From NCBI GenBank assembly GCA_030390025.1, contig CM059432.1:54376001-54440000 (forward strand): DNA of 64,000 nucleotides. The letters run 5' to 3'. Made by a program: the position numbers and the translations under genes. The notes under the pieces are model-generated. The model saw nothing but the letters and a program-made list of their open reading frames with translations, was not told the DNA's origin and made no database searches. The DNA is from Squalus acanthias. Lineage: Eukaryota. The first letter of the stretch is position 1. Each line of letters opens with the position of its first letter. Positions 3,280-46,783 of this stretch are shown here, piece after piece.

Positions 3280-4883
3280 GGCCGGAATTTTGCCTACCTG
3301 GGTTCAGGCGGTGTCCGTGGCGGGTCGCGACCCCACTGCTGGCTCCATCCCACTGTTGAAAATGAACTTACCTTAATGCGGCCTATTAAGCCCACCCAGC
3401 GCGTTACCCGGTCTAATGAGATGGAGTGGGTCTGGTGACGTCATTCATGACACATTTTCAGCTGGGATCTTTAAAGGGACCATGGCCACATTAGATTTAA
3501 AGTTTAATCTAACATAGTGTTGGAGTGCTACAAACACTGACAATGACTGCACAGAGGCAGAGGGCTGCACCCAGGTTTTCCGATAACTCCCTCCATATGC
3601 CTATGGAGGGAGTCAGAGCACGCAGGGAGGTCCTCTTCCCTTCCAATGGGTGGAAGAGACCTCCCCAGGAGACCAAGACAGCCTGGTTACAGATTGCAAA
3701 AGAGGTCACAAGCAAGGATGTTGTCAGGAGGACCTGGTTGCTGTGCCGCAAACATTTAAATGATCTCATTAGATCAGGAAACATTAGTACAAAGCCACAC
3801 TGGATTTGGGGCTCATCGTGGTCCAATTCTGAGGACCAAGGTGAGACAGTATAAACCGCACCCATGTTGATGGAATAGATGGCAGGTGAAGTACAGATGA
3901 GAGAGTTCTTCCAATGAGGTGACACTTGATGGAGACTTTGCTGGAAACACTTGCAGCCTGCAGAATCTTGCTGTGCCTCTCATCACATCCCCATCACTCT
4001 GCCTTCCCTACCCTACTCCTGCACATCCTTACTCACACCAACATACCTTGCACCTCCACCCATCCCTCTCTCTCTCTATCTACATTATCATATCCCCATC
4101 TCACTTGTCACCCCTCACACTCACCCTCATCCTAGTGCAATCATACCAACTAACAACACACAAGGGTAGCCACTTGGGTGTTTTATCCAATGTTGATGTA
4201 AAGTTTCTGTTAATGTGCTGTCAAACATAAAAATCTTTATTTTCAACACTTTCCGGTCTTGGACAGATTTGTGTGCACCTTTGGAAGTGGCTTAGTGAGT
4301 TGCACTGAATGGGGAGATATAATGGTACCCCCCCACAATGGTGTTGAGAGTGAAAGAAATGGCTTGGTCATTGTAGTGATGCTTTAAGGTGTTGGTGTGG
4401 GGTGGTGCCAACCTGGCGCATCATGTGGCAGCCTTATGGGTGTACAGCTGGAAATGGTCTGAGCAACAGCTTCTGCCTGAAGAAAGTGATCATCTGTCAG
4501 GTGGAGCTTTTACTGTACATTTGATGCTGTCAAGTAATCAGCTGGAGCAATGACCACGGAACTCCCGCCTCAGGTTGACAGACGTGGTTCCCGAGCTGCG
4601 GTATACGCCTGACCATGCAGGGAAATTTAAAAAGTAAGTGAAAAAAGGCTCTTAAGTGCCTGTAAACTACCTGATAATGATTTTGATTGGGTTGTCCTCC
4701 GCTGCAGGTCAGTGAGCATCTTACATAGTATTACTTTGTTCATTGAAGACGTCACAGGTGCTGTGGTGGGAATGGTAAGCAGCCTACAGGGCAGACAGTG
4801 ATCTGCAGAGCAGGATTGTGGCTGTCGCTCCAGGGACAGGCCTGTGTACCAAGCCCACAGCGGCCTGGGCCCAAATATCACCC
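3280..4883 (+). mobile_element. Non-autonomous Harbinger derivative retaining the Myb/SANT exon
   Basis: Starts GGCCGGAATTTTGCC; Myb-like exon; internal blocks are reverse-complement relatives of 15824-17575 and 23473-24760; right end approximate. Confidence 0.7.
3525..3778 (+). pseudogene. Harbinger Myb/SANT-like (trihelix) DNA-binding protein exon
   Basis: RAAPRFSDNSL...RREVLFPS...AWLQIAKEV...RRTWLLCRKHLNDL matches the Myb/SANT-like domain pattern of Harbinger accessory proteins. Confidence 0.8.
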
Positions 4884-7278: not shown

Positions 7279-7647
7279 ACAGTTTTGGTCTCCTTATTTA
7301 AGGAAGGATATACTTGCATTGGAAGCAGTTCAGTGACAATTCACTAGGTTAATTCCAGAGATGAGTGGGTTGACTAATGAAGAAAGGTTGAGCAGGCTGG
7401 GCCTATACGCATTGGAATTTAGAAGAATGAAAGGTGATCTTATTGAAACATATAAGATACTGAGGGGGCTCGACAAGGTAGATGCAGAGAGGATGTTTCC
7501 CCTCGTGGGGAAATCAAGAACGTGGGGGCACAGTTTTAGAATAAAGGGTCGCCCTTTTAGAACTGAGATGAGGAGGAATTTCTTCTCTCAGAGGGTCGTA
7601 AATCTGTGGAATTCTCTGCCCCAGAGAGCTGTGGAGGCTGGGTCATT

Positions 7648-8349
7648 GGGCCAAAAATTCGGGCACTTGTCGGGTGAGTACGCACTGTGTACTCACCCGT
7701 AAGGCCTCCTGAAGTGCTGGTTTCCTGCATGCACTGCGCATGCACTGCGCATGCGCGGGAAACCGGAACTTCCGGTCATGTGAAGGGAGCAGTTCAGAGG
7801 TGAACTGCGTGCGCGGTAGAGGCTGCGCGCACGCAGCAAACATAGGTTTTTTTTCAGGTTTCTCCGGGAGGATAAGTATTGAAGAACCTGCGCTTTTAAA
7901 AAGGAGACGCAGGACCTGTTTTCAACAAGGTAAGTGGTTAATTAATTATAATTGAAATTTTTTTTTAAGGTTTATCTTTTTTAGATACTTTAAAGAAAGG
8001 TAAGTTTATTTTTAGCACTGTTAAAAAGTATTTTATTTAACTTATAGTTATTTTAAAAATGTGATGGTTTTTTAAAAAATGTATTTGAAGTTTAGCTGTT
8101 CTTTTGGGGCCAATTTCAATTCATAGATTTGACAGGTCTGCTGCCATTGGCTCTCCATGGCCCACGTGATCCCAGGGGACGCATCACACTAACTACGCCC
8201 CTGGGACACGCAAGCACTGCGTGCCGGCAGTTGGGGCAGGCCCAGGAGCTGAAGTCCCCGGGGGCCAGAAGCAGAACGGCAGACGCGGTAGGTAAGTGCG
8301 TGCGCGATCCTTACCCCCGCGGCAAGCCGGAGAGGTGAATTTCTGGGCC
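7648..8349. mobile_element. Harbinger-type MITE (702 bp)
   Basis: TIRs GGGCCAAAAATTC / GAATTTCTGGGCC; 3-bp TSD ATT (7645-7647, 8350-8352); removal restores CR1 GGTCATTAAATAC. Confidence 0.88.
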
Positions 8350-8708
8350 ATTAAATACATTTAAGGTGGAGATAGACAGATTTTTGCAAGATAAGGGAGT
8401 GAAGGGTTATGGGGCAGGGAAGTGGCTTTGAGCCTAAGATCAGCCATGATCTTATTGAATGGCGGAGCAGGCTCGAGGGGCCAAGTGGCCTATTCCTGCT
8501 CCTATTGCTTATGTTCTTATGTTCCCTCCGACAGGGCCTTCACACATACAGCAGGAGTCCATGGATATCACCGACGACGAATCCTCAAAGGAGTTGATTC
8601 CTTCTGAGGGTGCACTGTCACAGGACTCATGCTTACCATGCACCAGTTCAGATACTTGCACTTCGGTGGGTCCAGTTAGACAGATAGTTGGGTTTTTACC
8701 CGGTGACT

Positions 8709-9210
8709 CAAGGCCTGCATGGACACATTTGATTGCCACTATCGATGTTTCATGGAGTTGGCTACTCTAACCACGCAAGAAGACATCCTCGCAATGCCCT
8801 GCGATATCAATCCACTCATGCTTGAGGCGGAGCCCTTCATTCTCTCTGCATTGATGAACAGTGACTCAGATTTCACAAGTGAACAAGACAGACAGTGGTG
8901 GCAAGGACAGCTATGGAGAGTCACGTTGGAGGGCGCAGCCCTCTTAGAGCTCTGCTCATCTGGACATAAATGCGGTGCCCAGGGGCCACCAATGAAAAGG
9001 AGAATCGTCGATGAGTATAAGAAAATATGTGTTGTACTGACAGTCTTTCTAAGCACACTGTCCATCAATGCAAAGAGAATGAAGGGCTCCACCTCAAGCA
9101 TGAGTGGATTGATATCGCAGGGCATTGCGAGGATGTCTTCTTGCGTGGTTAGAGTGGCCAACTCCATGAAACATCGATAGTGGCAATCAAATGTGTCCAT
9201 GCAGGCCTTG
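8709..9210. repeat. 155-bp inverted duplication (8709-8863 vs 9056-9210)
   Basis: About 4 mismatches by eye; left copy flanked by GTGACTCA at 8703-8710 and 8861-8868. Confidence 0.9.
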
Positions 9211-9373
9211 ATCACAGCCATGCAGACTCTGGATGCCAACATATCTTCCGCCTAAAATAGGATGACAGGTATCTTAGCCTTGGGCTTACAGCGCGTCACT
9301 GATCCGCACCAAATTGCTCTCCAGCAGCAGCAGAGTGGTAGCAGTGAAGTGTGGTTAGCCCATGAGAGGGATG

Positions 9374-12300
9374 AGGTAAGGGAGGTGGGGTAGCATTGCT
9401 GGTTAAAGAGGGGATTAACACAATTGAAAGGAAGGATATTAGCTCTGATGATGTGGAATCTGTATGGGTAGAACTGAGAAATAACAAGGGGCAGAAAAGG
9501 AGTGATATATAGACCTCCAAACAGTAATGCGGAGGTTGGGGATGGCATTAAAAGGGAAATTAGAGAAGCGTGCAATAAGGGCACAGCAGTCATCATGGGT
9601 GACTTTAATCTACATATAGATTGGGCTAACCAAATTAGTAACAATACTATGGAGGAGGAATTCCTGGAGTGTTTACGGGATGGTTTCCTGGACCAATATG
9701 TCGAGGAACCAACCAGAGATCAGGCCATCTTAGACTGGGTATTATGCAATGAGAAAGGATTAATTAGCAATCTTGTTGTGCGAGGCCCCTTGGGTCGGAG
9801 CGATCATAATATGATAGAATTCTTCATTAAGATGGAGAGTGAAGTAGTTGACTCAGAGACTAGGGTCCTGAATTTAAATAAAGGAAACTACGATGGTATG
9901 AGGTGCGAGTTGGGTAGGATTGATTGGGGAATGTCACTCAAAGGGTTGACGGTGGATAGGCAATGGCAAACATTCAAAGACTGCATGGACGAACTACAGA
10001 ATTTGTTCATCCCAGTTTGGCATAAGAATAAAACAAAAAGGGTGACTCAACCATGGCTAACAAGGGAAATTAGGGATAGCATAAGATCCAAGGAGAGGGC
10101 ATATAAATTGGCCAGAAAAAGCAGTAACCCTGAGGATTGGGAGCAGTTTAAGATTCAACAAAGGAGGACAAAGGGATTAATTAAGAAGGGGAAAATAGAA
10201 TACGAGAGTAAGCTTGCAGGGAACATAAAAATTGACTGTAAAAGCTTTTATAGATATGTGAAGAGAAAAAGATTAGTGAAATCAAGCATAGGTCCCTTGC
10301 AGTCAGAATCAGGGGAACTTATAATGGGGAACAAAGAAATGTCAGACCAATTAAATACATATTTTGGTTCTGTCTTCACAAAGGAGGACACAAATAACCT
10401 CCCAGAGATGTTGGGGAACATAGGGACTGATGAAAGGGAGGAACTGAAAGAAATCAGTATTTGTAGGGAAATGGTGTTAGGGAAATTGAAGGGATTGAAG
10501 GCCGATAAATCCCCAGGGCCTGATAATCTACATCCTAGGGTACTTAAGGAAGTGGCCCGAGAAATAGTAGATGCATTGCTGATCATCTTCCAACATTCGA
10601 TGGAATCTAGAACAGTACCCATGGATTGGAGGGTAGCTAATGTTACCCCACTATTCAAAAAGGGTGGTAGAGTGAAAACGGGGAATTACAGACCGGTAAG
10701 CCTGACATCGGTAGTGGTGGAAAATGCTAGAGTCCATTATAAAAGATGTAATAGCAGAGCACTTGGAAAACAGTGACAGGATCGGACAAAGTCAACATGG
10801 ATTTACAAAAGGTAAATCATGCTTGACTAATCTACTGGAATTTTTTGAGGATGTAACTGGTAAAATAGATAAGGGAGAACCAGTGGATGTGGTGTATTTG
10901 GACTTCCAAAAGGCTTTTGATAAGGTCCCGCATAAGACATTAGCGTGTAAAGTTAAGGCACATGGGATTGGGGGCAAGGTATTGACTTGGATAGAGAACT
11001 GGTTGGCAGACAGAAAGCAAAGAGTTGGAATAAACGGGTCTTTTTCGAAGTGGCAGGCAGTGACTAGTGGGGTACCGCAGGGATCGGTCCTTGGACCCCA
11101 GCTATTCACAATATATATTAATGATCTAGACAAGGGAACTAGATGTAATATATCCAAGTTTGCAGACGACACAAAACTGGGTGGGCGTGTGTGCTGCGAG
11201 GAGGATGCCGAGAAACTCCAGGATGATTTGGATAGGTTGGGTGATTGGGCAGAAGTGTGGCAGATGCAATATAACGTGGATAAATGCGAGGTTATCCACT
11301 TTGGTGTCCAAAACAGAAAGGCAGATTATTGGCCCAAAAATTAAACCTAATACGCGAGAGTACGCACTGTGTACTCTCGCGTATTAGATCCCGAATTGCC
11401 GGTTTCCTGCATGCACTGCGCATGCGCGGGAAACCGGCACTTCGTGAATTGAAAAGGGGGCGGTTCCTAAGTGAACCGCGTGCGCACTACAGGCTGTGCG
11501 CACGCAGTGCACTTAGTTTTTTTTTCCAGCTTTGAACGCGCAGGTAAGTGGTGAAGATTTTACACACAAAGAAAGCAGGCGTAGGATCCCCTATTAACAA
11601 GGTAAGTAGTTAATTAAGTGTTATTTTAAATTTTTTTCAACAGGTTTATCTTTTTTAGAGACTTTAAAGAAAGGTAAGTTTATTTTTATAACTTTTAAAA
11701 AGATTTTAAATTTTTTCAAAAATTTAATTTTTTGTTTAAAGTGGTTAATTTATTTAACTATACTTATTTTATTAATGTGATGGCTTTTTTTAAATTTAAT
11801 TGAGGTTTAGCTGTTCTTTTGGGGGTTTGTAGTATTCATAGCTTTGACAGCTCTTGCCGTCAAAACTATGAATGAAAGATGGTGTGCTGCCATTGGCTCT
11901 AACTGAATCACGTGATCCCAGAGCTCGCACGAACTAATTGCGCCTCTGGGTCACGCAAGCACTGCACGGTTCCAACAGAGAGAGCCTTTGAAACTAAAGT
12001 TCGTGTGGGCCCGGAGCAAAAAGCTAGGCGCGGAGTGCGATATCGCGGGGAATCCTTACCCCCGCGGGAACCATCCATGTTTAATTTCTGGGCCAATATC
12101 TGAATGGCAATAGATTGGGAGAAGGAGAAGTGCAACGAGACCTGGGTGTCCTTGTGCACCAGTCGCTGAAGGTAAGCATGCAGGTGCAGCAGGCGGTGAA
12201 GAAGGCAAATGGTATGTTGGCCTTCATAGCGAGAGGGTTTGAGTACAGGAACAAGGATGTCTTGCTGCAGTTGTACAGGGCCTTGGTGAGACCACACCTT

Positions 12301-12850
12301 GATTACTGTGTGCAGTTTTGGTCACCTTATCTGAGGAAGGATGTTCTTGCCATTGAAGGAGTTCAGCGAAGATTCACAAAGCTGATACCTGGGATGGCAG
12401 GGATGACATATGAGGAGAGATTGTGTCGATTGGGCTTATACTCGCTGGAGTATAGAAGAATGAGAGGGGATCTCATCGAAACATATAAAATTCTGACAGG
12501 ACAGGAAAACTAAATGCAGGAAGGATGTTCCCGATGGTCGGGGAGTCACAGTCTAAGGATAAGGGGTAAGCCATTTAGGACAGAAATGAGGAGGAATTTC
12601 TTCACCCAGAGAGTGGTGAACCTGTGGAATTCTCTGCCACAGAAGGCAGTAGAGGCCAATTCATTAAATAGATTCAAGAAGGAGTTGGATATATTTCTTA
12701 AGGCTAAAGGGATCAAGGGATATGGGGAGAAAGCAGGGACAGGGTACTGAATTTGGATGATCAGCCATGATCGCATTGAATGGCGGAGCAGGTTACAGGG
12801 GCCGAATGGCCTACTCCTGCTCCTATCTTCTATGATTCTATGATTCTATG
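9374..12850 (+). mobile_element. CR1 LINE ORF2 (APE, RT, 3' tail), relatively young, with few frameshifts
   Basis: ORFs 9502..10776 (IYRPP, GDFN, SDH endonuclease motifs), 10724..11344 (QHGF, DFQKAFD, FADD), 12115..12750; (TTCTATGA)n tail. Confidence 0.93.
11331..12094. mobile_element. Harbinger-type MITE (764 bp), relative of 7648-8349
   Basis: TIRs GGCCCAAAAATTAAAC / GTTTAATTTCTGGGCC; flanks ATT/AAT; CR1 coding sequence resumes across it (ADY|YLNG). Confidence 0.88.
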
Positions 12851-13465
12851 ATGGTGAAAGGGGTCATGGAAGTGGGAACTCCATTCAAAGCACTCCCACT
12901 TTTCACCCGTTGCCACCCCCACCCCTCAGTCGGTACCTGACATGCTGCCTCCTGTCCCGATGGTCGAGTCTGCCCCTGCACAGGTGCAGGTGGAACAGTC
13001 TTTGGCGGGGCCCTCATAGGCTCCAAAACCCAGAGGGTGTCGGCTAGGGATCAGTCAGAGCAGGGATCTGAGCAGCCTGCTTCTGCATCTGCTCAAGCCA
13101 CAGGGGTTGCACCACGTAGGAGCAGTAGGAAAATGAAGAGTAAAGCTTTGTAGTTGTACAAGGGTATGTGCATGGGTGTATGAAAAAATTTTATGTTGTG
13201 AAGTTTCCGTTCTTTGGTAGAAGCACGTGAAAATTGTTAGTTTGCACCACTTTCCCGTGATGCCCATTGATGGTTGTCGGGTGGCAACTCGCCTTTACAC
13301 TTGCTTGATGATGAATGGGAAGGTATGAATTGACGGGGACCAATGGGGGGACTTGAAAAAGGTGTATGATTGCTTTGTCTCAGTGGCATTGAGGGTGGGG
13401 GGAAGGGTAGACATTGTGTGTGGTTCTGACATCGGTCCAGTGGTGGTAAGTAACTGAACCTTGCA

Positions 13466-14330
13466 TTAATAAGGGCATCCCTGGCATCCTGGGCAGCCAT
13501 TTGAGCAGCTGGTGCTTTCATCCTCTTCCTCTTCCTCCTCTTCCTCCTCCTCCTCCTCGGAATCGTCTGCAGACAATGTGCGTTCTGTGCCTTGTTCCTC
13601 CTGCAGCTCCAAACCTCGCTGTTGCACAATGTTGTGCAGAGCGCAGCACACCACGACCAATCTGGGCACTCTGGCTGGTGAGTATTGAAGGGCGCCTCCA
13701 GATCTGTCCAGGCACCTGAAGCACATCTTAAGCATGCCGATCACTTGCTCAATGACACATCTGGTGTTCATATGGCTTTCATTGTCTTGGGATTTAGTGG
13801 TTCGGTTCCTCACGGGTCTCAGCAGCCAAGGTTGATGGGGTTATCCTTTGTCTCCTAGAAGTCTCCAGTAAGTCTGCTTGCAGGTCCAAAGACGTCAGGG
13901 ATGAAAGCATCAAGGCAGCTCCTTGAGAACACCTGCATAAATATCCTTCTGTGGTTCCACAGCAGCTGCACATTGATGGAGTGGAAGTCTTGTGGTTCAC
14001 GAATACACCTGGGTGATCTGGAGCTGCGTGGATTGCCACATGTGTGCAGTTGATACACCTGTGGGAAGCCAGCCAGAGACACAAACCCAAGCGTCCTCTT
14101 GTTCTGACTGACTTCATCACAGGCGAAGTTCACATAATTGCCAGTCCTGGCAAACAACCCATCAGTCACCTGCCTTATTCATTTGTGTGCCACCAACTGA
14201 GAGATCCTGACTATGTCTCCGGCAGAGCCCTGGAAGAATCCAGAGGCAAAAAAGTTGAGGGTGGTGGTCACTTTGACAGCCACTGGTAACACGTGGCCAC
14301 CAGGTCCAGCAAGGAGCAGGTCTTCTTCAC
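13466..14330 (-). pseudogene. Harbinger DDE transposase (HARBI1-like), disrupted
   Basis: [74 protein letters not shown], poly-Glu tail; frameshifts. Confidence 0.88.
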
Positions 14331-15212
14331 CACCTGGCGCTACAACCTGAGCCTCCAGAAGGAAGCTTAGCCTCAGTACACCCTGTTTCACAGGTAGCGC
14401 CTCCTGCGAGCTGCACCCCTCTGCTGCTCCCCTCTCTGCTGCTCCCCTCTCTGCTGTCCAGCTGCAGGTCTGTCAACAGCAGCCTGTTGCTGCTGCTGAT
14501 GGTCATATCGCTTCTCGTCCGAGATCCAATCTAAGGCAGCCAAGGCGCCACCCATCTGATCTGATTTAGAAAACCTCCAAAGTGTAGAAAGTAAACTCTC
14601 AGGAAAAGTATTGTCAACAAACCCTTTCCCACTAGTAGATAAGAAAGCAACTGTGAGTACTGAGTATTTATTGAAGTATTTGCATGACTTTTAATCAGCC
14701 CCTTGAATTGCCATTGTGTTTGCGGTTTCAATGGCAAGTTTCAGGTAGCCCGGGAAACTTGTGGATGTGCTGTTAAATTTGAAAATGTGTTGAAATATCG
14801 CTCCAATTAAGCAATTAGCATATGTTAATAGTTAACCCGCCTCTCGCGCAACCAGCCCAACGAACCCTGGTTAAACCTGGTAGTTGGCTGGTTGGAGGCG
14901 GCATCCAGACGCACCTAAACCCACACGCTGATCCATTTTGAAATTCTCTCCTTTATTCCTATTTTTTGAAAAGTTCTTACCTGGCCTAAAGGCAAAAGAA
15001 GATCTATTGAAGATGATAGAAACATGGCACAGACAACAAAACAATTAACATTCTTACATTTCAATTGTTTTCTTTCCTCTGCTAGTCACCATGATATAAT
15101 TGCTTGCTTAAAATATATCTATCTTAAACCATATTTAACCCTGTCTTTGTTTCCTTGGCCCAGCCTCAGCTATTTACATTGCTATCCTCTTGCATCCTGT
15201 ATGTGTCTGCTT

Positions 15213-15387
15213 GGCACAGTGGTAGCACTCTTGCCTCTGAGTCAAAAGATTGTGAGTTCACTTCTGTGCTATACTGAGGACGTACGGCATTGTCAGAGGT
15301 GTAACCTTTTGGGTGAAATGTTAAACCAAAGTCCCATCTGCCTGTTCAGGTGGGTGTAAAAGATCCCATAGCACTATTTGAAGAGAA
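15213..15387 (+). mobile_element. Decayed DeuSINE (SacSINE1-like) fragment
   Basis: tRNA-like head plus GTTAAACC...TAAAAGATCCCATAGCACTATTTGAAGA, similar to the reverse complement of 40205-40493. Confidence 0.65.
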
Positions 15388-15660
15388 TATCCTTTGTCAT
15401 TGCATTACTCATGTGTGACGTTCTTACAACAAAAATTCTTCTCCCTCCTCAAACAAAACGTTTTGTTCAACATTTTTTCATGACAGTGCCATTTTAAGTA
15501 ATATGAAAAGAAAATGAGGATATTAATGCTGCTGGTGCTTTAGTTGTCTCCATTCATCTTGTCCCTTCAGAGAACTATTTTTCTCTCTCGTTCTCTCTCC
15601 CCTCCCACCGCAGCCCCCCCCCCACTTCCTGTCTCCCCTCCCCTCTCTCCCCTCCCCTCT

Positions 15661-15820
15661 ATGAGGCGAATAGCGTAGATACATTTAAGGGGAAGCTAAA
15701 TAAACACGTGAGGGAGAAATTAATGAAAGGATATCCTGATAGGGTTAGATGAAGAGTGGTGGGCGGAGACTCATGTGGAGCATTAACGTCGGCAGAGACA
15801 AGATTCTATGCTATAGATTC
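15661..15820 (+). mobile_element. Old CR1 3'-end fragment
   Basis: GAGGCGAATAGCGTAGATACATTTAAGGGGAAGCTA resembles CR1 ORF2 C-terminus; ATTCTATG tail. Confidence 0.55.
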
Positions 15821-15823
15821 TAT

Positions 15824-17575
15824 GGCCGCGATTTCGCCGGCGCTCAGTGGGCGGGACTGGGGGCGGGTCAGCTGGGAAATTGACCAAGATTGACAGTGGG
15901 TAGGGAACCCGCTGTCAAGCCGCCTCCACGCTAGTCTCCCAGATGTCGGGTCAATCATTGCTGAACAGACCTGACACCAAGCGGCAGGGGAGGCAATTTC
16001 AACGATTAAGAGCTTGTTAACAGGCACTTAAAAACTATTTTAGGCTCACCTTTAGATTTTAAGACTTCGCCCACGGCTTCCCCGCTGCTCGGGGATCACG
16101 TCAGGTAAGGAGGTCGCGAGTTGTGTCACCATGGGATCATTTCTTAACTTGACAGCTGCAAATGTGCTATAAAAGCTTCCATTTCATAGCTGTTCACTTT
16201 CTAAGGTCAGAAGCTGTTGTTTACTGCATTTGGAAGACAGATTGAGCTTTATGCAGCTTGCAAGTGTTTGGAGCAATCTCTCTATCCAGTGTCACCTCAT
16301 TGGAACAACCTCTCTCACCATTGACTGATCGCTTCTGTCATCTCAACTTCACCTGCCATCTATTCCATCAGCATCGGTGCCCTTGAAACTATCTCACCTT
16401 GGTCCTCAGAATCCCAACACAATCAGCCCCAACACCAGCAGCACCAGGCACACCAGCTGCACCAACAACAACACCAACCTTCTCCACAATCAACTGATGC
16501 TGCACAGGACACAGGGCATCAGCACCTGACCACATTGCTGTCCGGGACGCCAGGGATGGCCTCACCATGGCCAGATTTACTTCACTTGACGCTGTACATC
16601 CTGGCTGCCACATAATGCACCAGGTTGACACCACCCCACACCAACACTATAAAGCATCCCTACAATGCCCAAGCCATTCCTTTCACACTCATCACCATTG
16701 CAGGGTGGGTACCATTATATCTCACCATTCACTGCAACTCACTAAGCCACTTCCAAAGATGCACACAAATCTGTCCAAGAACACAAAGTGTTGAAAATAA
16801 AGATTTCAATGTTTGACAGCACATTAACAGAAACTTTACATGAACATTGGCTAAAACACCCAAGCGCATACCTTTGTGTGTGGTTACTTGGTATGATTGG
16901 ACTAGGATGAGGGTGAGTGTGAGGGGTGGCTAGTGAGGTGGGGAAGTGATAATATAGATAGAGAGGGATGGGTGGATGTGCAAGGTGAGTTGGTGTGAGT
17001 AAGGATGTGCAGGAGTAGGGTAGGGGAGGCAGAGTGATGGGAATATGATGAGTGGCACAGCAGGATGAGGTTGAGTGTGGCTTTGCACTAACATTTCGTG
17101 ATCGACTGAGATCATTGAAAGGTTTGCACTACTGCAGCCTTGTCCTCCTAATGACATCCCTGCTTATGTCCTCCTGTGCAATGTGCAACCAGGCTCCGTT
17201 GATCTCCTGGGGAGGTCTCTTCCGCCCATGGGAAGGAAAGAGGACCTCCAGGCATTCTGTGACTCCCTCCATAAGCTTATGGAGGGAGTCATGGGAGAGC
17301 CTGGGTGCAGCCATGCACCTCTGTGCAGTGCTTGTCATTGTTTACAGCACCTCAATGCTGTAGAACACTGAAAGCTCAATTGTCAAAATCAATTTGCGCA
17401 TGGTCCCTTTAAGGAAACCAGCTGATGACGCATCATCAAGTGACGTCATCAGACCCGCTTCCTTCAATAGGCCGGGAAACGCACTGGCGAAATTAACAAG
17501 CTCAGTTAGCATAAAATCATTTCACAGAGCGGGCTAGAGCCAGCAGCAGGGTCTTCGACCAACAAAAAATTATCC
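15824..17575 (-). mobile_element. Non-autonomous Harbinger derivative with Myb/SANT exon (17129..17338-)
   Basis: Left end GGCCGCGATTTCGCCGGCGCTCAG nearly identical to 23473; AAPRLSHDSL...EVLFPSHGRKRPPQE..AWLHIAQE; right end approximate. Confidence 0.78.
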
Positions 17576-17599
17576 AGCTTCCTCTTAAATTTCTGACAC

Positions 17600-18160
17600 T
17601 AGTAAGGATTTTAACTCCCTGGCATAAAGCAGTGGAAAGGCATCGGACTTTCTACCCAGGAGTTTATGTGAGAAGCCCGATCAATTTTAACAACTGGGCC
17701 TCATTAACATTTTGCCGGAAATGGAAGTAAAGAGGCACATGATCAGCTGCCACCCGCCGGCACTCACATAAGTCACGGGGGATTCAGGAGGTTTTAGCGC
17801 GTGGGAAGGCGGGTGAGGGGCTGGGGGGCCAAACTTTCCTTGTCGGGCCCGCAGAAGTGCTCCTGCACCTCCTGGCCCCACAAAGATAGGTTTTTTGGTT
17901 ACCTTTTGAGGTCACTTCTTCTTCTCCAGCAGCTTTTACTGGCTGGAGTATCAATAGCAGATGCTCCAGCCAGTAGGTTATTAAAATTGTTCGGGAGTCC
18001 TATCACAACAATAAGACCCTGATTTGCATATATTTATGAGGTGTGTGCCTGACTCATGCAGACGTCTCAACCATCTGGTGTTAGAATAGCCGCGGAGCAG
18101 TATCCAAGCAGCAAACATACAGCAAGGTTTCGACTCCCATTCCGCCCGATTTCCACCTTA
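17600..18160. mobile_element. Probable non-autonomous DNA transposon, related to 52715-53440 and 62645-63298
   Basis: Shares motif GTGCTCCTGCACCTCCTGGCCCCACAA with the other two copies; ends GATTTCCACC; boundaries approximate. Confidence 0.45.
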
Positions 18161-18349
18161 TCTGTTACTAATGCCCCTTTGGGAAGCCTGTTTCACATAT
18201 GCACCACCAAATTGTCGTGGAAAAATTGTTGTAAGGAGAATTAAGTGAAAAATATTAAAAATCAAATGGTTTGAGGAGGCAGAATGTTTTTAAAGTGATG
18301 CAATGCATGTAAACAGTCAACAAGCTATAACATTACATATTGCCCAGTT

Positions 18350-20838
18350 AATCTACATATTGACTGGGCAAATCAAATTACCACAAATGGTTTGGAGGAC
18401 AAATTCTTGGAATGCATGCGAGATGGTTTCCTGGATCAGTATGTGGAGGAACCAACCAGGGAACAGGCTATTCTGGATCTGGTACTGTGTAATGAGAAAG
18501 GGCTAATCAATAATTTTGTGGTAAAGGGGCCTTTAGGGACAAGTGACCATAATATGATTGAATTTTACATTATGTTTGCGAGTGATGTAATCCAATCTGA
18601 AACTAAGGTCTTCAATCTAAACAGAGGAAACTACAAGGGTATGAGGGACAAGTTGACCATGGTAGATTGGGAGACTACACTAAAAGGTATGAAGGTGGAC
18701 ATACAACGGCTAACATTCAAGGAAATAATGCATAATTTGCAACAAACATATACAGTATTCCTCTAGGGCATAAAAACCCAAAAGGAAAAGTGATCCAACC
18801 ATGGCTAACAAAAGAAATTAAAGCTAGTATTAAGTCAATAGAGGAAGCTTATAAAGTTGCCAGAAAAAGCAGTCAGCCTGAGGATTAGGATCTTTTTAGA
18901 AATCAGCAAAGGGGGACCAAGAAATTGATAAAGAAAGGGAAAATGGAATATGAGCACAAACTAGCGAAAAATATAAAAACTGATTGTAAAAGCTTCTATA
19001 GGTATGTGAAAAGGAAAAGACTGGTGAAGGTAAATGTAGGTCCTTTACAGTCAGAGATGGGAGAATTTATAATTGGGGATTGAGGAAATGGCAGAGAAAT
19101 TAAATAAATAATTTGTTTCTGTCTTCATGGAGGAAGACACAAAAAACCTCCCAGAAATACGAGAAAACCAAGGGTGTGGCAAGAATGAGGAACTTAAAGA
19201 AATTATTATTAGTAAAAAAAATAGTACTAGCAAAATTAATGGGACTAAAAGTCGATAAATCCCAAGGACCGGATGACCTACATCCTAGGGTTTTGAAAGA
19301 GGTGGCCATTGGGATAGTGGATGCATTGGTTGTCATCTTCCAAAATTCTATAGATTCTGGAACGGTTCCTGCAGATTGGAGGATAGCAAATGTAACCCCG
19401 CTATTTTAGAAAGGAGGGAGAGAGAAAACGGGGAACTACAGACCTGTTAGCCTCACATCAGTAATTGAGAAAATGCTGGAATCTATTATAAAGGATGCAA
19501 TAACTGGGCACTTAGAAACTAATAGTAAGATTGGGCAGAGTCAACATGGATTTATGAAAGGGAAATACTGTTTAACAAACCTATTGGAGTTCTTTGAGGA
19601 TGTAATTAGTGGAGTAGACAAAAGGGAACCGGTAGATGTGGTGTATTTGGATTTTCAGAAGGCCTTCGATAAGGTCCCACACAAGAGGTTGGTGAACAAA
19701 ATTAGGGCACATGGAATTGGAGGTAATATACTAGCATGGATAGAGAATTGGTTAACAGACAGAAATCAAAGAGTAGGGATAAACGGGTCTTTTTCAGGAT
19801 GGCAGGCTGTGACTAGTGGGGTACTGCAAGGATCGGTGCTTGGGCCCCAGCTATTCACAATCTATATCAATGATTTGGATGAGGGGACTAAATGTAACAT
19901 TTCCAAATTTGCTGATGATACAAAGCTAGGTGGCAGTGTCAGTTGTGAAGAGGATGTGAAGAGGCTTCAAGGGATCTCGACAGGCTCAGTGAGTGGGCGA
20001 GAACATGGCAGATGGAATATAATGTGGATAAATGTGAAGTTATCCACTTTGGTAGGAAAAACAGAAATGCAGAGTTTTTCCTAAATGGTGAAAGATTGGG
20101 GAATGCAGATGCTCAAAGGGACCTGGGTGTCCTTGTACATGAGTCACTGAAAGTGAATGTGCAGGTGCAGCAAGCCATTAGGAGGGCAAATGGTATGCTG
20201 GCCTTCATTACAAGAGGATTTGAGTACAGGAGTAAAGAAGTCTTACTCCAATTATATAGGGCCTTGGTGAGACCACACCTGGAGTACTGTGTACCATTTT
20301 GGTCTCCTTACCTAAGGAAGGATATACTTGCCATAGAGGGAGTGCAACGAAGGTTCATGAGATTGATTCCTGGGATGGCGGGACTGTCACATGAGAAGAG
20401 ATTGAGTAAACTAGGCCTGTATTCTCTTGAATTCAGAAGAATGAGAAGGGATATCATTGTAGCATACAAAATTATTACAGAGCTTGATAGGATGGATGCT
20501 GGGAGAATGTTTCCCTTGGCTGAGGAGTCAAGAACCAGGGGCCACAGCCTCAGGATAAAGAGTAGGCCATTCAGGACTGAGATGAGAAGAAATTTCTTCA
20601 CTCAGAGGGTGGTGAATCTTTGGAATTCTCTACCCCAGAGGGCTGTGGAGGCTCAGTCATTGGGTATATTCAAAACAGAAGTCGATAGATTTCTGACTAG
20701 TAAGGGCATCAAGGGATTTGGCGATAGGGCCGATGAATGGAGTTGAGGCAGAAGATCAGCCATGATCTCATTGAATGGCGGAGCAGGCTCGAAGGGCCGA
20801 ATGGCCTACTCCTGCTCCTATTTCTTATGTTCTTATGT
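18350..20838 (+). mobile_element. CR1 LINE ORF2 (partial APE, RT, tail), decayed
   Basis: ORFs 18392..18766, 19113..19409, 19473..20084, 20012..20746; TTCTTATG tail. Confidence 0.93.
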
Positions 20839-22579
20839 AACACTGGGCCAAAAATTAATGATTTTAATTCAAAAATATTTAGGGGTAGTATTTTCAATAC
20901 CTCCAACACAGCGTCAAAAAAATAGGGGGGGTGGATGGCATTGCAGCTTTTCCTGTGCCTGCCATTATCAACAATCTTCAGTGACAGTTGCCTGCAGCCA
21001 AAATGCACCTCCCCCTTAAAAGGTGCAGTTTGCCTTTAAATGGCATCAATAACACGTGATATTGACATCCCCTGCTCCCGCCACCCACTGCCGCCCCCCC
21101 CCCTCACCCACCCCCCATTAGGTGAGCCAATAAACGGCGTTGTTTAATGTGGCCCTTCCAGCAAGGCAGCTAAACAGAGCTTTTGTGAGCCACATTTCAG
21201 CTACAGAAGAGCTGCATGTGGCTTGCAAAATCCAAGGTTGACCACCCTTGATCCAACACATCGAGGTTAGAAGCTTTACTGGGATAAAACTTTTAAAGGA
21301 AACATTTATCCTTCTTGTATCTGATCTTGATATCGTTTTGGATTACTACACTTTAATGAGCTTTTCAGTACATGATTTTAGATTTCACATGATTCTTCAC
21401 CAAGTATAGTGCTCAATAATTGGTTTGTTCTCATGATGTCACGTGATTCTGTATTTCTCAATAAGGAGTTGAGCCCAGTGTTGAAAAACTGACACAACGT
21501 TCTTCATTCTTTTGAAGCTGTTTAGTGGTATCACTTTGATATTTTGATGCTGTATACCAGTAGAAATATAATTTTTATTTTCATTACTTTTTCCCTCGAT
21601 AAAAGTTTCTTGATTTGGGAAGTGAATTACCTGGCGGTAATCCAATCAAATAGTTCAGATAACATTATAAACCAGGAGAGCAAAGGACGAGCTGTTTGTT
21701 AGTCATCTGAATCCCAATATTGGATTACTGCCTGTAATCTTCTGCCACTCATCCAGCATTTACATCAACTTATTTTTAACCTATGTTATTACTGCCGCTT
21801 TTTCTGTGCCATTGCCGTGACAATGACGCAAAATGATGAGGAACGTCACAGCATATCAAGCTGGTGACTCAATGTTGCAGGAACATCAAAGAATATCAAA
21901 TTCTTTCAGAAGTTATTTTACATAATAATTCATGATCTACGAAATATGCAGAGATGATATGCCATAGACAGTCCTGACCTATGATAAATATTTCTGTATT
22001 ACCTTTGTCTCATAACTGGAGATGTTTATTATATGTAATGACTAGTTATGATAAACCTGCTGTAAATGTTAGAAAAACTATCAGCGTGAAATTGGGATCG
22101 GTCGCACCCGTTGTTTTGGTGCTACAGGTGCTGTTTGGGTACCGAAATGGCATCCGATGCGCGCGCGCACTTGTGGGGTGAATCGCGCTGGACACCATAT
22201 TGGTGAGGACACATCTAACGTCCACTGGAAATATGCAGAGCAGGCTGATCATGACATCAATCAGTGTGCAACGCTGATTTGATGGCAGCGATGCCATTTT
22301 GGAGCTCAATGCTCCAGCCAGCACCTTCTCTTAACCTTGCACAGCTGAACACACATTCAGCAGCAGGAAGGACCCCCCCACCAGTGCTATTCAAAGGGAT
22401 CATCAATTACTTACACGTTAGTTGCTGCTTGATTTCTTCTGGCTGTTGCTACGATTCTACAAGTGTTTGGTGCTTTCCATAGATGTTTCGAGTTGCAAAA
22501 GTCTGTAGGGAGTGGTGTGGCAGGTGCTGATGGACTTTTGCTGAGTTCAAAGATTCTGCACAAACCACTTGCTGCCAGA

Positions 22580-25030
22580 TATGTGTGCATTAGTAGGCAT
22601 TCCCCTTGGAATTCAGCAGGACTGGTGAATGAGCAGAGGCCAAGCAGAGCAGGACAAGCTGTTGGAAGAGGGAGGAGAAGTAGGGGGAGAAGGGCTCTCA
22701 GCAGGAGGCCATATCCTCCCAGGGTGTTCAGGGAGAAATTCTCCTATCTGAACCTCAGTGATGTAAAAGATGAGAGACATCTGCGCTTCAGTAAGGATGT
22801 CCTCACTGAAATCTGCCAGCTGCTGCAACCACAACTGCAACCCCAGAGCAGGGCAAGGACCGCATTGCCAGTGGACATGAAGGTGACCGTGGCGATGAAC
22901 TTTTATGCGTCTGGTTCCTTCCAGGCTGGAGCTGGAGGTATTTGCAACATCTTCCAGTTTGCCATCCACTGTTGCATAAGGGAGTTCACTGAGGATCTTT
23001 ATTCAAAGAAAGCTGACTACATTTCATTCTCTCTTCCCCAGACAAGCAGGCAGAGTGAGCACACGGCTTCACTAGGATTGCAGGCTTCCCCGTGGTGCAG
23101 GGTGCCATTGACTGCACACACATCACTTTGTGGGCACTGCATTCCAACTCTGCCCTGTACCAGAACCAAAAGAGATTCCATTCCCTTAACGTGCGGCTGG
23201 TGTGTGTCCATAGGCAGCGCATCATGCAGGTCAATGCCCGGTATCCTGGAGCAGTCATGATGCCTTCATTCTGCGACAGTCTGCTGTGCCAGCTGCATAT
23301 CAGCAACCAAGGCAAACCAAAGGGTGGCTACTGGGCAACAAGGGCTATCTGCTGATGACATGGCTCATGACTCAGGTGCTCAACCCACGCACACGTGCAC
23401 AGCATGCATACAATGAAAGCCATGCTGCCACATGAAATGTGATAGAGCAGAGCATTAGTGTACTGAAACAATGGCCGCGATTTTGCCGGCGCTCAGAGGG
23501 CAGGTTTGGAGGCGGGTCAGAGGTTAAAGTCGTTTTTTTGACGGCAGGTTCCGCATCCGCCATCATCCCTCCTCCACATAACCTTCCCAAGTGTTGGGTC
23601 CCCGATTTGCGAATGGGCCCGACACTTAGCAGCGGGAAACGGATTAAAGGCAATTAACTACTTATTAACAGGTACTTGTGAGCAGTTTTCAGGGTCTTTT
23701 TCGATTTTCCAGCTTCTGGGTCGAGTTTTACGACATCCGGACAACACGCCAGGTAAGTGTGGTGTGTTGTGAGTCTGGCCTGATGTTTGTGAAAAGCTGA
23801 CAGCTGCAGAAGTGGTGTCAAGGATGCCATGTTGCACATGGTGAGTTTCAGAGCAAAGAAAATGTTGGTTACTGCATTTTTAATACATATATAGATTTCT
23901 TTAGCTTACAAGTTTTTAAATCCAACTGTATGTCCAGTGCCACCTCATTGGGAGAACCTCTCTCACCAGTGACAGATCGCTTCTGTCATCTCACCTGCAG
24001 CTGCCATTTATTCCAGCAACATCAGAGCCAATGAAACAATCAGACCGTGGTCCTCCGAACCCTTCCAACACTTCCCCAATACCAACATCTCCAACCTCAT
24101 CACCAACCTTCGCCGCCATCACCTGATACTGCACTGGACACAGGGCGTCAGCCCCTGACAAAATTGCTGGCCGGGATGGCATCACTATGGCCAGACTTTC
24201 TTCACATGGGCATTGGCTGAACCTCTCAAGTGCACACCCTTGTGTGTTGTTAGTTGGTATGCTTGCAGTAGAATGAGGGTGAATGTGAGGGGTGGCTAGT
24301 GAGATGGGGAAGTGATAAAGTATATAGAGAGGGTTGGGTGGAGGTGCAAGGTAAGTTGGTGTCCTGGGGAGGTCACTTCCGCCCTTGGAAGAGAAGAGAA
24401 CCTCCCTATGTACTGTGACGCCCTCCATAAGCATATGGAGGGAGTCATTGGAGAGTCTGGGTGCAAGAGTTCACCTTTGTGCAGTGATTGTCAGTGTTTT
24501 CAGCACCTCAATGCTGTCAAACACTGAAAAATCAACTATCAAAATAAAATTGTGCATGGTCGCTTTAAGGAAACCGACAGATGACGCGTCATCAAATGAC
24601 GTCATCAGACCCGCTTCCTGTTAATTGGCCGGTGGGCGGGCTTAACAAGGCCAATCAAGGGAAAATCATGTCTGCAGAGCAGAGGCAGCTGGGGGCAGAG
24701 CTGGAACCCGGAAACCAGCTGACCCGCCCCCATCCCGACACCGATGAGAAAATCGCGGCCAATGCTTCTGGTGCCTGGACTGCACTGGAGAAACCTTGCA
24801 GTACTCAGCAGAGCGAGTGTCAAGATTCATGGTGGTCTGCTGCACGCTGCACAACCTCGCTATCATGAGGGCACAGCCCTTGCCACCAGCTACATGGCGA
24901 GCAGCTGAGGAGCAAAAGCATGAGGAGGAGTAGGAAGAAGAGGAGGAAAAAGAGGAAGAGGAAGAGAGGAGGCAACCTAGACAGCTCCTTTCTGCCTGGG
25001 CTGTCCATGAAGAACTCATCCAAGTGCGAT
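22580..25030 (+). pseudogene. Harbinger DDE transposase, disrupted and split by insertion 23473-24760
   Basis: RRPYPPRVFREKFSYLNLSD, ALPVDMKVTVAMNFYASGSFQ, VQGAIDCTHI, FHSLNV, VIEQSISVLKQ|CFWCLD, poly-Glu tail. Confidence 0.88.
23473..24760 (-). mobile_element. Non-autonomous Harbinger derivative (1288 bp) with partial Myb exon
   Basis: Perfect 12-bp TIR GGCCGCGATTTT / AAAATCGCGGCC; TSD AAT at 23470-23472 and 24761-24763; host transposase frame restored on removal. Confidence 0.92.
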
Positions 25031-25254
25031 ACCAGTAACTGCAACCCCAATTCCCCATTTACCAACAGTCTCACACTTTACCTTCCCTCTGTCACTGACC
25101 ATCACAGCATTTGCTTGGTCACAATGCAAAAATAAAAGCCACCACAAAATAAATACTCCAAACCAAATTTATCAACGAAATCATGCCATATTGCACGCAG
25201 AAGTCAACTAATCATCCTTGTGCATTCCCTTAGTGCTTGTCTTCCGTGTTTCTT

Positions 25255-25345
25255 TCTTTTTTATTCGTTCATGGAATGTGGGTGTCACTGGCAAGGCCAG
25301 CATTTTATTTCCCATCCCTAATTGCCCTTGAGAAGGTGGTGGTGT
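25255..25345 (-). mobile_element. Short 3' tail fragment of the LINE family at 33115-36511 (or of its SINE)
   Basis: TTTTTTATTCGTTCATGGAATGTGGG...CCTTGAGAAGGTGGTGGTG matches 33115-33203. Confidence 0.8.
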
Positions 25346-27857
25346 GCCTTTGCCTGTCCTAGTGCTCCTATGCAGTGCTACCCCAGTGGCTGCAGCATGG
25401 CTGGTGGAAGGCTGCTGAATTTCAGTGGAGGAAACTGTAGATGTCCTTGGAGGACGACCTCGAGCAGCTCTGGGCTTAGAAGGCCCGGTTGCGGACTGCA
25501 CCATCTCGGCATGGGTGGCAACAGTCTGGACTGGTTGGCTGACAGGCAACAGCAAGGGCACTGACAGAGTGGCATGGGTGGGAGGACAAATGCTATCTTC
25601 CTGAGAGAGGACAGCAGGTTCATGCTCCGTGGAGCCACTCTCCCTCAGCAACCCTAGTAATCTGTTGGAGGACAGATTGCTGGACTGCTGTGACACCCTG
25701 CAAGCCCCTTTACACACTGTCATCCACAGCCATGATGGCAGCAGTCTGACCTTGCATGACAGCAGTCTGAACTTCCACTGCAGCACTCAGATGTTGGGTG
25801 GCTGCTGTTTGTGCTGCAATGGAAGTTACGACGTCAGCCATCAGACGTTGTAGCCTAGTTGGGTCCGCAAGTGTGCAAAAGGAATTGACCAACACTTCCA
25901 TGCTGGAGTGGATGGGCTCCAAGCTCTGTGCAAAGCCCTGTACCAAGTTGGTGCCAGACTCCTCCATGCTTCTTGACATTTCTGGCAGGCTTCCCAATGC
26001 ACCAAGCATTTCATTGTGCATACCCATCAGCCTTCTGCTGTAGCCTGCCCCATCGAAGTCTTCATCTGAGTACTCTGCACCAGAACTCATGTGCAACCTC
26101 ACCCTTCTGTGAGCTGGCACCTGCGCTAACCTTTTACCCTGCTCTGGCTGCAGGCCACTCGTGCCTGGTATCTCACCACGTTCAGATCCCACCTGTTTGC
26201 TATCCTCTATATTACGCAAAGTTTCAGTATCTGAGCTGGTGGCTGCGAGTGTGAAATCAAGTGATGACGTGTCTTCATCATCATTGTCTTCTTCCTCCAC
26301 TGCCTGGCTAGGTTGCACTTCTTGGGTATCTGAAAAGAAAAAGGCACAAGGTTAAGGTTGTGGTGAGGGGAGGGGAGGGAAGAAAGAGGTGCATGCTTAC
26401 ACCTTGTAAATCAGAAGAGATTGTGGGATGAGGGAGAAGTGGGATGTGAGAAGGAAATTAGGTATGAGGATACCATCATCTTCGATGGCTTCAGCCCCGC
26501 CACTGGCCTCGGCCTCAGCAATGACCATTCCAATAATGGCCAGCACTGTCTCCTCCATGGAGGTTATAACATGCAGGCGTGCCTGTCCCCCTTCGGTTAG
26601 CTCCTGCTGCCTCCGGTTGTGCGCCACCTTGTCCTGCAAGAGAGAGGGAAGTGTGTCAGTGAGTGTGGTGCAATCTGTTTGGGTGATGTGGCTGTCATGA
26701 TTGAATAGTTGGCAGTGTGTGCAAGCTGTGAGATGTGGGTGTGAGGCTTGCAGCAGTGCTAAGTGTGTGAGGGTGAGCTGAAGCTATGAATGTTAGGTAT
26801 GAGTCCTGATTGATAGAGATTGTTGGTCGGTGAGTGATGGGGGTGTGGTGCATAAAGCAGAGGCTGAGGCTAGTGGTACAGTTGGTATGGCATTTGAAGA
26901 TGAATTCACTGACCTTGACCACTCATGTGAGGTCACTGAGCTTCTTGAGGCACTGCATCCATGTCCTCGGGGCTTGACTCCTGGCATTGACCTCGGCGGT
27001 TATCTGCTCCCATTGCCTTCTGAGCGTGTGCCTGGAGGGCCTCCTGGCCCCCTGCAGATACAGGACATCTGAACCAGTCTGGGACCAGGGTCCTAGCAGA
27101 AAGGATAAATAGGGCGGTCAAAATGACTTTAAACTAGTAAATGGGGGAGAGGGCTCAGGTGGAAAATGTAGTACAAATAATAGTTCAAAAACAAACAAAA
27201 GGGAAGAGAGTAGATTAACAGTCAGAAATTGTGCTTTAGGCACCGCATGTCAAGGGAAAACTAAAAGATGTAAAGTGATTAAACCAGGAGAGAGAAATAA
27301 GAAACATGTGAGTAAAATATTCGAGCTGAAGGACAGGCTAGGGTGTGTGGCCCAAATAAGCGTTCTTTTTACAAATGCATGGAGTATAAGGAATGAATTG
27401 AATGAACTGCAGGCACAAATTCAACTTGGAGGGTATGACATGGTAGCCATTACTGAGACATGGCTGCAAGACGGTCAGGACTGGCAACAAAATATACCAG
27501 GTTAGAAGGTCTACAGGAAAGATAGGGAAAATGGTAGAGGGGGAGGAGTAGCCTTAGTGATTAAGGATGATATCACTTCAATAATAAGAGAGGATATAAC
27601 AAGAGCTAAGCAGGTAGTGGAGACTTTATGGGTAGAATTAAGAAATAGCAAAGGATTTAAGACTGTAGTGGGAGTTGTGTATAGGCCCCCTGGTAGCAGC
27701 TGTGAAGAGCTAGATTGTATAAATGCAGGATTAGACAAGAATGTAGCAAAGGCAGAGTGGTTTTAATGGAGGATTTTAACTTTCATATAGATTGGGATAA
27801 GCGGTCAGAAAGGTAGTGAATTTCTTGAGTATGTCTGGGATAGTTTTCTGCAACAAT

Positions 27858-28200
27858 GGCCCGTAATTTCCGATGTCTACAGGTGTGTGCGAGCTGTGTA
27901 CACACCCGTAGGGACCTCGCAAGTGCCGGTTTTAGGCATGCGAAACGCATGCGCTGAAAACCGACATTTCCGATCTGGCAAGAATGCTCTTGACAGATCG
28001 CACGACTGCCCTGGAGAAGGGCCTCTGCGGGTGGAGCGTTCCGCTTTCTGCAGAACCTCCGCCCGCTGAAATCCCTTAAAAATCTTACGCCTGGTAAAAG
28101 CAGGCGTAAGGTCTGCTTTTACCAGCATAAGAGTTTAAAAAAATTAAAAAATAATTTTTTTTCACTCATTTATAATGTAAAAATACTTTAAAAAAAAAGT
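27858..28200. mobile_element. Left portion of a Harbinger-type MITE distantly related to 7648 and 11331
   Basis: Begins GGCCCGTAATTTC after AAT; same order of hairpins and AT-rich tract; right end missing. Confidence 0.7.
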
Positions 28201-46497: not shown

Positions 46498-46783
46498 ACA
46501 TAAGAACATAAGAAATAGGAGCAGGAATAGGCCACTTGGCCCCTCGAGCCTGCTCCGCCATTCAAGAAGATCATGGCTGATCTTGGCCTCAAAGCCACTT
46601 CCCTGCCCGCTCCCCATAACCCTTCACTCCTTTATCTTGCAAAAATTTGTCTATCTCTACCTTAAATGTATTTAATGACCCAGCCTCCACAGCTCTCTGG
46701 GGCAGAGAATTCCACAGATTTACGACCCTCTGAGAGAAGAAATTCCTCCTCATCTCAGTTCTAAAAGGGCGACCCTTTATTCT
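46498..46783 (-). mobile_element. CR1 3' fragment
   Basis: Nearly the reverse complement of 7540-7647 plus 8353-8525, i.e. the empty-site version of the MITE insertion at 7648. Confidence 0.88.

Follow-up and report, generated by a model that had tools for sequence, protein, structure and literature searches.

The 64,000 nt of Squalus acanthias DNA analysed here (the window) are repeat-rich animal DNA in which three related copies of a short transposable element, each lying within a CR1 long interspersed nuclear element (LINE), carry an ordered series of inverted repeats, and it is the origin and possible role of these hairpins that concern us. Among 30 of the 61 long frames, a domain scan detected pieces of CR1-type LINEs (RVT_1, Exo_endo_phos), a Penelope-like GIY-YIG piece and Harbinger-type DDE_Tnp_4 remnants. 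Copies 1 and 2 are complete non-coding elements, neither of which encloses a stop-free frame of at least 120 aa, and copy 3 is a 5' fragment. The element ends read GG(G/C)CC-AAATT, with a target duplication of ATT/AAT; the terminal inverted repeats span 13 bp in copy 1, where two positions are mismatched, and 16 bp in copy 2, where one is. The termini of copy 1, read inward, are GGGCCAAAAATTC on the left and GGCCCAGAAATTC on the right, with ATT on each flank, and a CR1 paralogue at 46721 (minus strand) crosses the insertion point with a single ATT, which identifies ATT as the target duplication. This empty-site paralogue (46674-46783) matches copy 1's left flank without a difference over 110 bp and is 93% alike on the right flank. 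For copy 2 the flanking triplets are ATT and AAT, and contigs from three of four public runs (X1, X7 and X15) skip 767-774 bases at its position, as expected of empty sites; for copy 3, empty-site CR1 paralogues are found at 46419 and 54603.

Contigs matching copy 2 plus 66 bp of flank number 12,732 in run X1, and in run X7, from another organism, 8,144, some of these contigs falling on the CR1 flanks and neither figure being a copy number; three raw DNA reads of run X21 also fall on copy 2. Such numbers of contigs in X1 and X7 indicate that the family is abundant and predates a single species. Pattern scans for further copies gave none in viral contigs (two scans), none in prokaryote genomes and one AT-rich stretch in metagenome contigs, the surroundings of which, judged by eye, are unlike the element. 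[quoted passage not shown] The Harbinger-type non-autonomous family proposed in a preliminary description of this DNA is thus supported by ends, target duplication, empty sites and abundance. Target duplications have been given as TWA in PIF/Harbinger, ANT in Pangu and CWG in NuwaI (PMC4482050); those of the three copies (ATT, ATT/AAT and AAT) follow neither the TWA of PIF/Harbinger in the strict sense nor the CWG of NuwaI.

The hairpins of these copies are beyond chance. Perfect stems of at least 8 bp (loop 3-30) number 6, 5 and 5 in copies 1, 2 and 3, against means of 0.32, 0.55 and 0.14 in 100 shuffles each (maxima 2, 3 and 2), and the CR1 sequence that separates copy 1 from copy 2, taken as a control, has two such stems against 0.98 when shuffled. 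Folding of copy 2 gave z-scores of -9.5 as DNA and, as RNA, -12.3 on the plus and -13.7 on the minus strand; copy 1 as RNA gave -10.7 and -6.8, respectively (20 shuffles each). The stems quoted in the preliminary description were all found where it placed them, with hairpin 2 (GGTTTCC/GGAAACC in two copies, GGTTTT/AAAACC in the third), hairpin 3 and the right-end stem as described, and the loop of hairpin 2 contains an additional inner stem of 6-7 bp. Hairpin 1 is indeed perfect over 11 bp in copy 1 and 17 bp in copy 2, but in copy 3 its 15 named pairs include A.C, A.G and two G.T. Copies 1 and 2 are full-length, end-to-end colinear and different in 180 of 706 ungapped columns; copy 3, a more distant relative, lacks the right end and can be aligned to them only over its first ~110 bp, with 73% identity across about 75 bp. 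The centre of hairpin 1 lies 36-37 bp from the element end in all three copies, and spaced inverted repeats form chains close to each end of the element.

That paired positions change together, as had been claimed from the three copies, was borne out when stems were defined from copy 1 alone, which avoids circularity. Seven stems were listed and four used (39 pairs), two being set aside as lying within a duplication of copy 1 that is gapped in copy 2, and one as AT-rich (4 pairs the same, 4 single changes, 1 gap and no doubles). At the 39 pairs, copy 2 has 30 unchanged, 5 compensatory double changes, no non-complementary double change and 4 single changes. When the 14 changes were placed at random, the mean number of doubles was 0.49, 1.4 and 2.2 at CpG rate multipliers of 1, 5 and 10, and five or more doubles were obtained in 0 of 40,000 trials, with P 0.002 and with P 0.016, respectively; for three or more non-CpG doubles P is at most 0.005. 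Two of the five doubles (hairpin 3 and the additional hairpin) are CpG transitions on both arms, which independent decay could yield, but CpG decay as the sole cause is rejected by this null with raised CpG rates. The reverse test, from the stems of copy 2, left 43 pairs the same, with 7 compensatory changes, 1 that is non-complementary, 8 on a single side and 24 pairs gapped, and hangs partly on the alignment of the outer arms. Across all three copies, 4 of 37 named pairs are changed on both sides, a count that 7 of 500 shuffles reach (a fraction that is not a probability) and slid controls (0-2) do not; three of these four changes are transversions, for which no G.U intermediate is possible. 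Between copies 1 and 2, hairpin 1 has outer arms that differ en bloc and are still paired inside copy 2, and the terminal repeats have copy-specific extensions that match inside each copy. Of the families compared within the window, this one alone is shown to have such strong covariation: another three-copy family with similar ends has conserved stems and at most one double per comparison, and a two-copy family has none.

The public contigs allow the pairing to be followed beyond single insertions. Copy 2 and the contigs differ in 89 places, of which 40 are listed, without haplotypes, and the 24 rows with an appreciable share of X1 were evaluated. In 15 of these the X1 majority letter differs from copy 2; six of the 15 restore a stem or extend it to at least 8 bp and none breaks one, against a null mean of 0.51 that never reached six in 20,000 trials (at a 6-bp threshold, null 1.72 and P 0.004). 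In addition, majority letters at 11567 and 11584, judged by eye, rebuild a hairpin like that at 28084-28110 in copy 3. It follows that the family is better paired than copy 2, and that multiplying lineages retain their pairing, with its loss following insertion; pairing is a property of the lineage, and single copies decay. Hairpin correction inside single inserted copies is rejected on the same grounds, as the majority letters restore stems that copy 2 has lost, and the random homogenisation of arms in single copies, which the preliminary description had named as evidence that would speak against it, is not what is seen.

In one respect the preliminary description requires revision, since it held that pairing rather than primary sequence is maintained. 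Between copies 1 and 2, stem columns are changed in 16 of 115 cases and neighbouring non-stem columns in 88 of 233 (Fisher P 3e-6), a stem divergence about 2.7-fold below the flanks in two fully colinear non-coding copies, and 21 of the 37 pairs in the three-copy comparison are invariant, so that sequence is constrained too. Unbiased correction from arm to arm would not slow the arms, and some selection on them is therefore inferred; as the element is non-coding, mobility in trans is what such selection would plausibly act on. The arms of hairpins 1-3 repeat a degenerate pattern of 9 letters, with seven of eight strict hits in copies 1 and 2. The best-conserved part of the element is its AT-rich middle, where copies 1 and 2 differ in 24 of 188 columns, which possibly reflects remnant 5' exons, protein sites or mosaic exchange; acceptor-like pyrimidine runs also occur there (7920-8110 and 11590-11700).

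These data suggest to us, with an even chance of being right, that the hairpins are dyad-symmetric DNA sites acting in cis in transposition, the symmetry of which is maintained by arm-to-arm template copying. The inverted repeats would be cis-elements for mobilisation in trans, held at a set spacing from the element end, and the likeliest protein to bind them would be the Myb/SANT partner of an autonomous relative; an element in the window with similar ends has a Myb/SANT domain (Myb_DNA-bind_5, PF13873, E 9e-6). The cores would change slowly because the arms are needed as cis-elements. Compensatory changes would be made in one step, one arm being rewritten from the other as DNA is replicated or a gap is repaired (by template switching or by fold-back correction), in lineages that are still transposing and with no step-wise selection on an RNA helix. 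One-step multi-base compensatory changes in stems have been ascribed to template switching (PMC8794818), and the block replacement of outer arms and the matching extensions of terminal repeats are changes of this kind. Double mutations that restore terminal palindromes are known in mariner-like elements (PMC5339849, PMC2955051). The zebrafish Harbinger3_DR Myb-like protein binds a 9-bp subterminal motif (cited in PMC9710019).

Several observations weigh against this proposal. The autonomous parent was not identified in the window, where remnants of DDE_Tnp_4 and Myb_DNA-bind_5 sit in other elements, one of them similar-ended, and a study of mPing found no common sequence-specific internal promoter of transposition (PMC9921582). 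Among the minority rows of the contig comparison, five of nine (11386, 11478, 11486, 11697 and 11708; at 17-44% of the depth in X1) would disrupt a stem of at least 8 bp unless the partner changes, and no partner change for these five is among the differences listed, although copy 1 has one for 11486; linked covariation cannot be read from contigs given in this form. The alignment comprises two full copies and one fragment. The contrast between stem and non-stem columns is partly circular, as the arms of hairpin 2 were chosen with both copies known, and right-end misalignment may have inflated it. The 9-letter pattern was derived post hoc from the same copies and is a lead only. Finally, copy 1 folds more strongly on the plus than on the minus strand. 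The features on which the argument rests are collected in Table 1.

Table 1. Copies of the element and their hairpins in window coordinates (majority letters are those of run X1)
Feature	Position	Strand	Remarks
Copy 1, complete non-autonomous element, 702 bp	7648..8349	+	Inserted in CR1 LINE
Copy 1 target duplication ATT	left 7645..7647, right 8350-8352
Copy 1 hairpin 1, perfect 11-bp stem	7671..7699		Two transversion double changes vs copy 2
Copy 1 hairpin 2, inner GCATGC stem	7711..7772		Loop holds 11-bp tandem duplication 7727-7748
Copy 1 additional hairpin, 8 bp, between hairpins 2 and 3	7789..7808		One CpG-type double change vs copy 2
Copy 1 hairpin 3, 11 bp	7805..7836		One CpG-type double change vs copy 2
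Copy 1 AT-rich middle	7920..8110	+	Splice-donor-like GGTAAGT at 7929 and 7999
Copy 1 right-end stem, 9 bp	8170..8206		One non-CpG double change vs copy 2
Copy 2, complete non-autonomous element, 764 bp	11331..12094	+	Inserted in CR1 LINE
Copy 2 hairpin 1	11345..11389		Perfect 17-bp stem 11347-11387; majority letters at 11370 and 11388 lengthen it inward and outward
Copy 2 hairpin 2	11392..11444		Perfect 11 bp at 11397-11439; 16 bp given majority letter at 11396
Copy 2 additional hairpin, 7 bp	11460..11479
Copy 2 hairpin 3, 10 bp	11478..11505
Copy 2 AT-rich middle	11590..11700	+	GGTAAGT at 11601 and 11673 (also 11543); among deepest bins of runs X1 and X7
Copy 2 hairpin, 8+9 bp	11834..11873		Right arm deleted in copy 1; majority letter at 11858 restores inner stem
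Copy 2 right-end stem	11916..11951
Copy 3, 5' fragment of more distant relative	27858 to about 28198	+	AAT before it; right end absent
Copy 3 hairpin 1, imperfect	27878..27910
Copy 3 hairpin 2	27920..27970		Perfect 7-bp inner stem
Copy 3 overlapping inverted repeats	28084..28131		10-bp and 13-bp perfect stems with common arms

Paired sites for a DNA-binding protein, one of the readings offered in the preliminary description, fit the conserved cores of the arms but fail to account for outer arms that change symmetrically. These symmetric changes, unexplained by a fixed protein motif, are what would be expected if the fold itself were the signal, with the arms extruding as cruciforms, or folding on single-stranded DNA, while the element is excised or a gap repaired, and with pairing selected by the transposition machinery regardless of sequence. 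Both strands of copy 2 fold equally, in agreement with such a role, and among 426 windows of 150 nt, 15 have a fold z-score of -4 or lower on a strand, by eye mostly in Harbinger-type elements of several families; hairpin-rich ends are therefore not peculiar to the family of copies 1-3. However, the sequence of the stems is conserved well over background, with most of the named pairs invariant, no report of such a structural role was found in the literature searched, and DDE cut-and-paste transposases work on duplex ends, and we regard this explanation as unlikely. Structure-read ends have precedents in IS200/IS605 and Helitron. In its most specific form, in which Harbinger-type ends of the shark lineage would be recognised by shape, as a phased chain of cruciforms or single-strand hairpins in a DDE cut-and-paste transposon with the covarying arms as its footprint, the idea is distinctly doubtful.

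Copying between arms might also be all that there is, with template switching rewriting the arms of existing imperfect palindromes as a neutral by-product and with conservation inherited from the promoter and 5' region of an autonomous ancestor. The mechanism is published for hairpins generally (PMC8794818), the overlapping inverted repeats at 28084-28131 resemble products of template switching, and two of the five doubles are plain CpG transitions. This is difficult to reconcile with inserted copies that lose pairing and do not regain it, and with the lower divergence of stems than of flanks, as unbiased correction leaves per-site divergence unchanged; a wholly neutral origin is in our judgement quite improbable.

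Only a slim chance is given to a functional RNA structure on the plus strand, as the regulatory leader of an ancestral transposase transcript or as a non-coding RNA. All splice-donor-like motifs are on the plus strand, as is the better fold of copy 1, all three copies have G.T as the tip pair of hairpin 1, and 590 contigs from a run guessed to be RNA fall on copy 2. Those contigs give neither strand nor level, however, and a high-copy repeat is expected in pre-mRNA anyway; the joints listed in this run are empty sites only, with 19 further joints beyond those listed. No match to Rfam was obtained at gathering score in the whole window. Copy 2 folds well on both strands and slightly better on the minus strand, among single-sided states G.T is seen in four pairs and A.C in three, small counts that favour neither strand, the doubles are mostly transversions, and the tip of hairpin 1 is Watson-Crick in 56% of X1 depth. 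The structured RNA envisaged in the preliminary description thus finds no support, and the hairpins are most likely a phenomenon at the level of DNA.

It is very improbable, finally, that the hairpins are host transcription-factor sites of an ancestral promoter, palindromic since such factors bind as dimers: the NRF1-like motif of hairpins 2 and 3 has its only two matches in the window at 7746 and 11417 (TGCGCATGCGC), and the copies have a CpG observed/expected ratio of 0.9-1.1, compared with 0.42 for CR1, but the full motif is absent from copy 3, hairpin 1, the right-end stem and covarying arms of 11-17 bp are left unexplained, and a non-coding element has no gene to drive.

Other features of the window were also noted. 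A perfect 32-bp palindrome at 17260-17291, followed by a second stem, lies within a Myb/SANT-like remnant frame and recurs at 24416-24447 and 3586-3613, being preserved in three copies that are 27-32% divergent overall. The transposase remnant of a larger Harbinger-type element has another element nested in it (23473-24760), which is internally deleted, has perfect terminal repeats of 12 bp and is flanked on each side by AAT. A very short palindromic element at 350-415, with a 12-bp stem and GGGGAAAT-like ends, is perhaps a collapsed Harbinger-type remnant, and at 20845 a terminus identical to the first 12 bases of copy 1 is preceded by ACT and has unrelated sequence behind it. An inverted duplication of 690 bp with 99.7% identity (487-1176 and 1825-2514), around a GIY-YIG-like frame, is probably a young Penelope-like insertion. 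An identical 8-bp stem with a 23-nt loop occurs at 8464-8502 and in nine other places near CR1 3' ends, and is presumably the terminal stem-loop of the LINE.

As a repeat, this family is another non-autonomous Harbinger-type element among many in the genome. Its covarying stems mark candidate cis-elements in a superfamily in which the recognition of ends has been described as poorly characterised (PMC9710019), and its many copies and subfamilies constitute a natural data set for asking how often template switching mimics the covariation that is commonly accepted as proving an RNA structure. If structure rather than sequence were recognised, the picture of how DDE transposons of the PHIS/Harbinger superfamily find their ends would change. 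Covarying hairpins of this kind were not found in the literature searched, a scope that excludes subscription journals, Repbase and Dfam, and the family may be catalogued there.

Among known systems, the hairpins shaped by template switching described by Monttinen and Loytynoja (2022, PMC8794818) share stem changes that are compensatory, affect several bases and arise in one step, with the loop kept; that work concerns RNA genes, in contrast to the subterminal DNA of a transposon considered here, for which such an origin of the changes is proposed. In its workings the family is like a MITE of the Tourist/Harbinger kind; mPing and Tourist-like MITEs are likewise short non-coding PIF/Harbinger derivatives in which internal and sub-terminal sequence influences mobility (PMC9921582). 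However, mPing is 430 bp, as against 702-764 bp, and has targets of the TWA type (PMC4482050 for PIF/Harbinger), and the terms "hairpin" and "secondary structure" have no occurrence in the text of PMC9921582. The zebrafish elements Harbinger3_DR and Harbinger3N_DR are closer in being vertebrate elements of PHIS/Harbinger type with subterminal motifs bound by a Myb-like partner (PMC9710019), and the target of Harbinger3_DR is palindromic (PMC3016246); its target core is CWG, unlike the ATT/AAT seen here, and a chain of covarying hairpins goes unmentioned in the parts of these papers drawn on. Pangu (Han et al. 2015, PMC4482050) shares with our family the ANT duplication and terminal repeats of 11-40 bp, which start with AG or GG in Pangu and with GG here. 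In the sections of that paper drawn on, its second open reading frame is without a known motif and no vertebrate host is listed, in contrast to the similar-ended element of this shark, which has a Myb/SANT domain.

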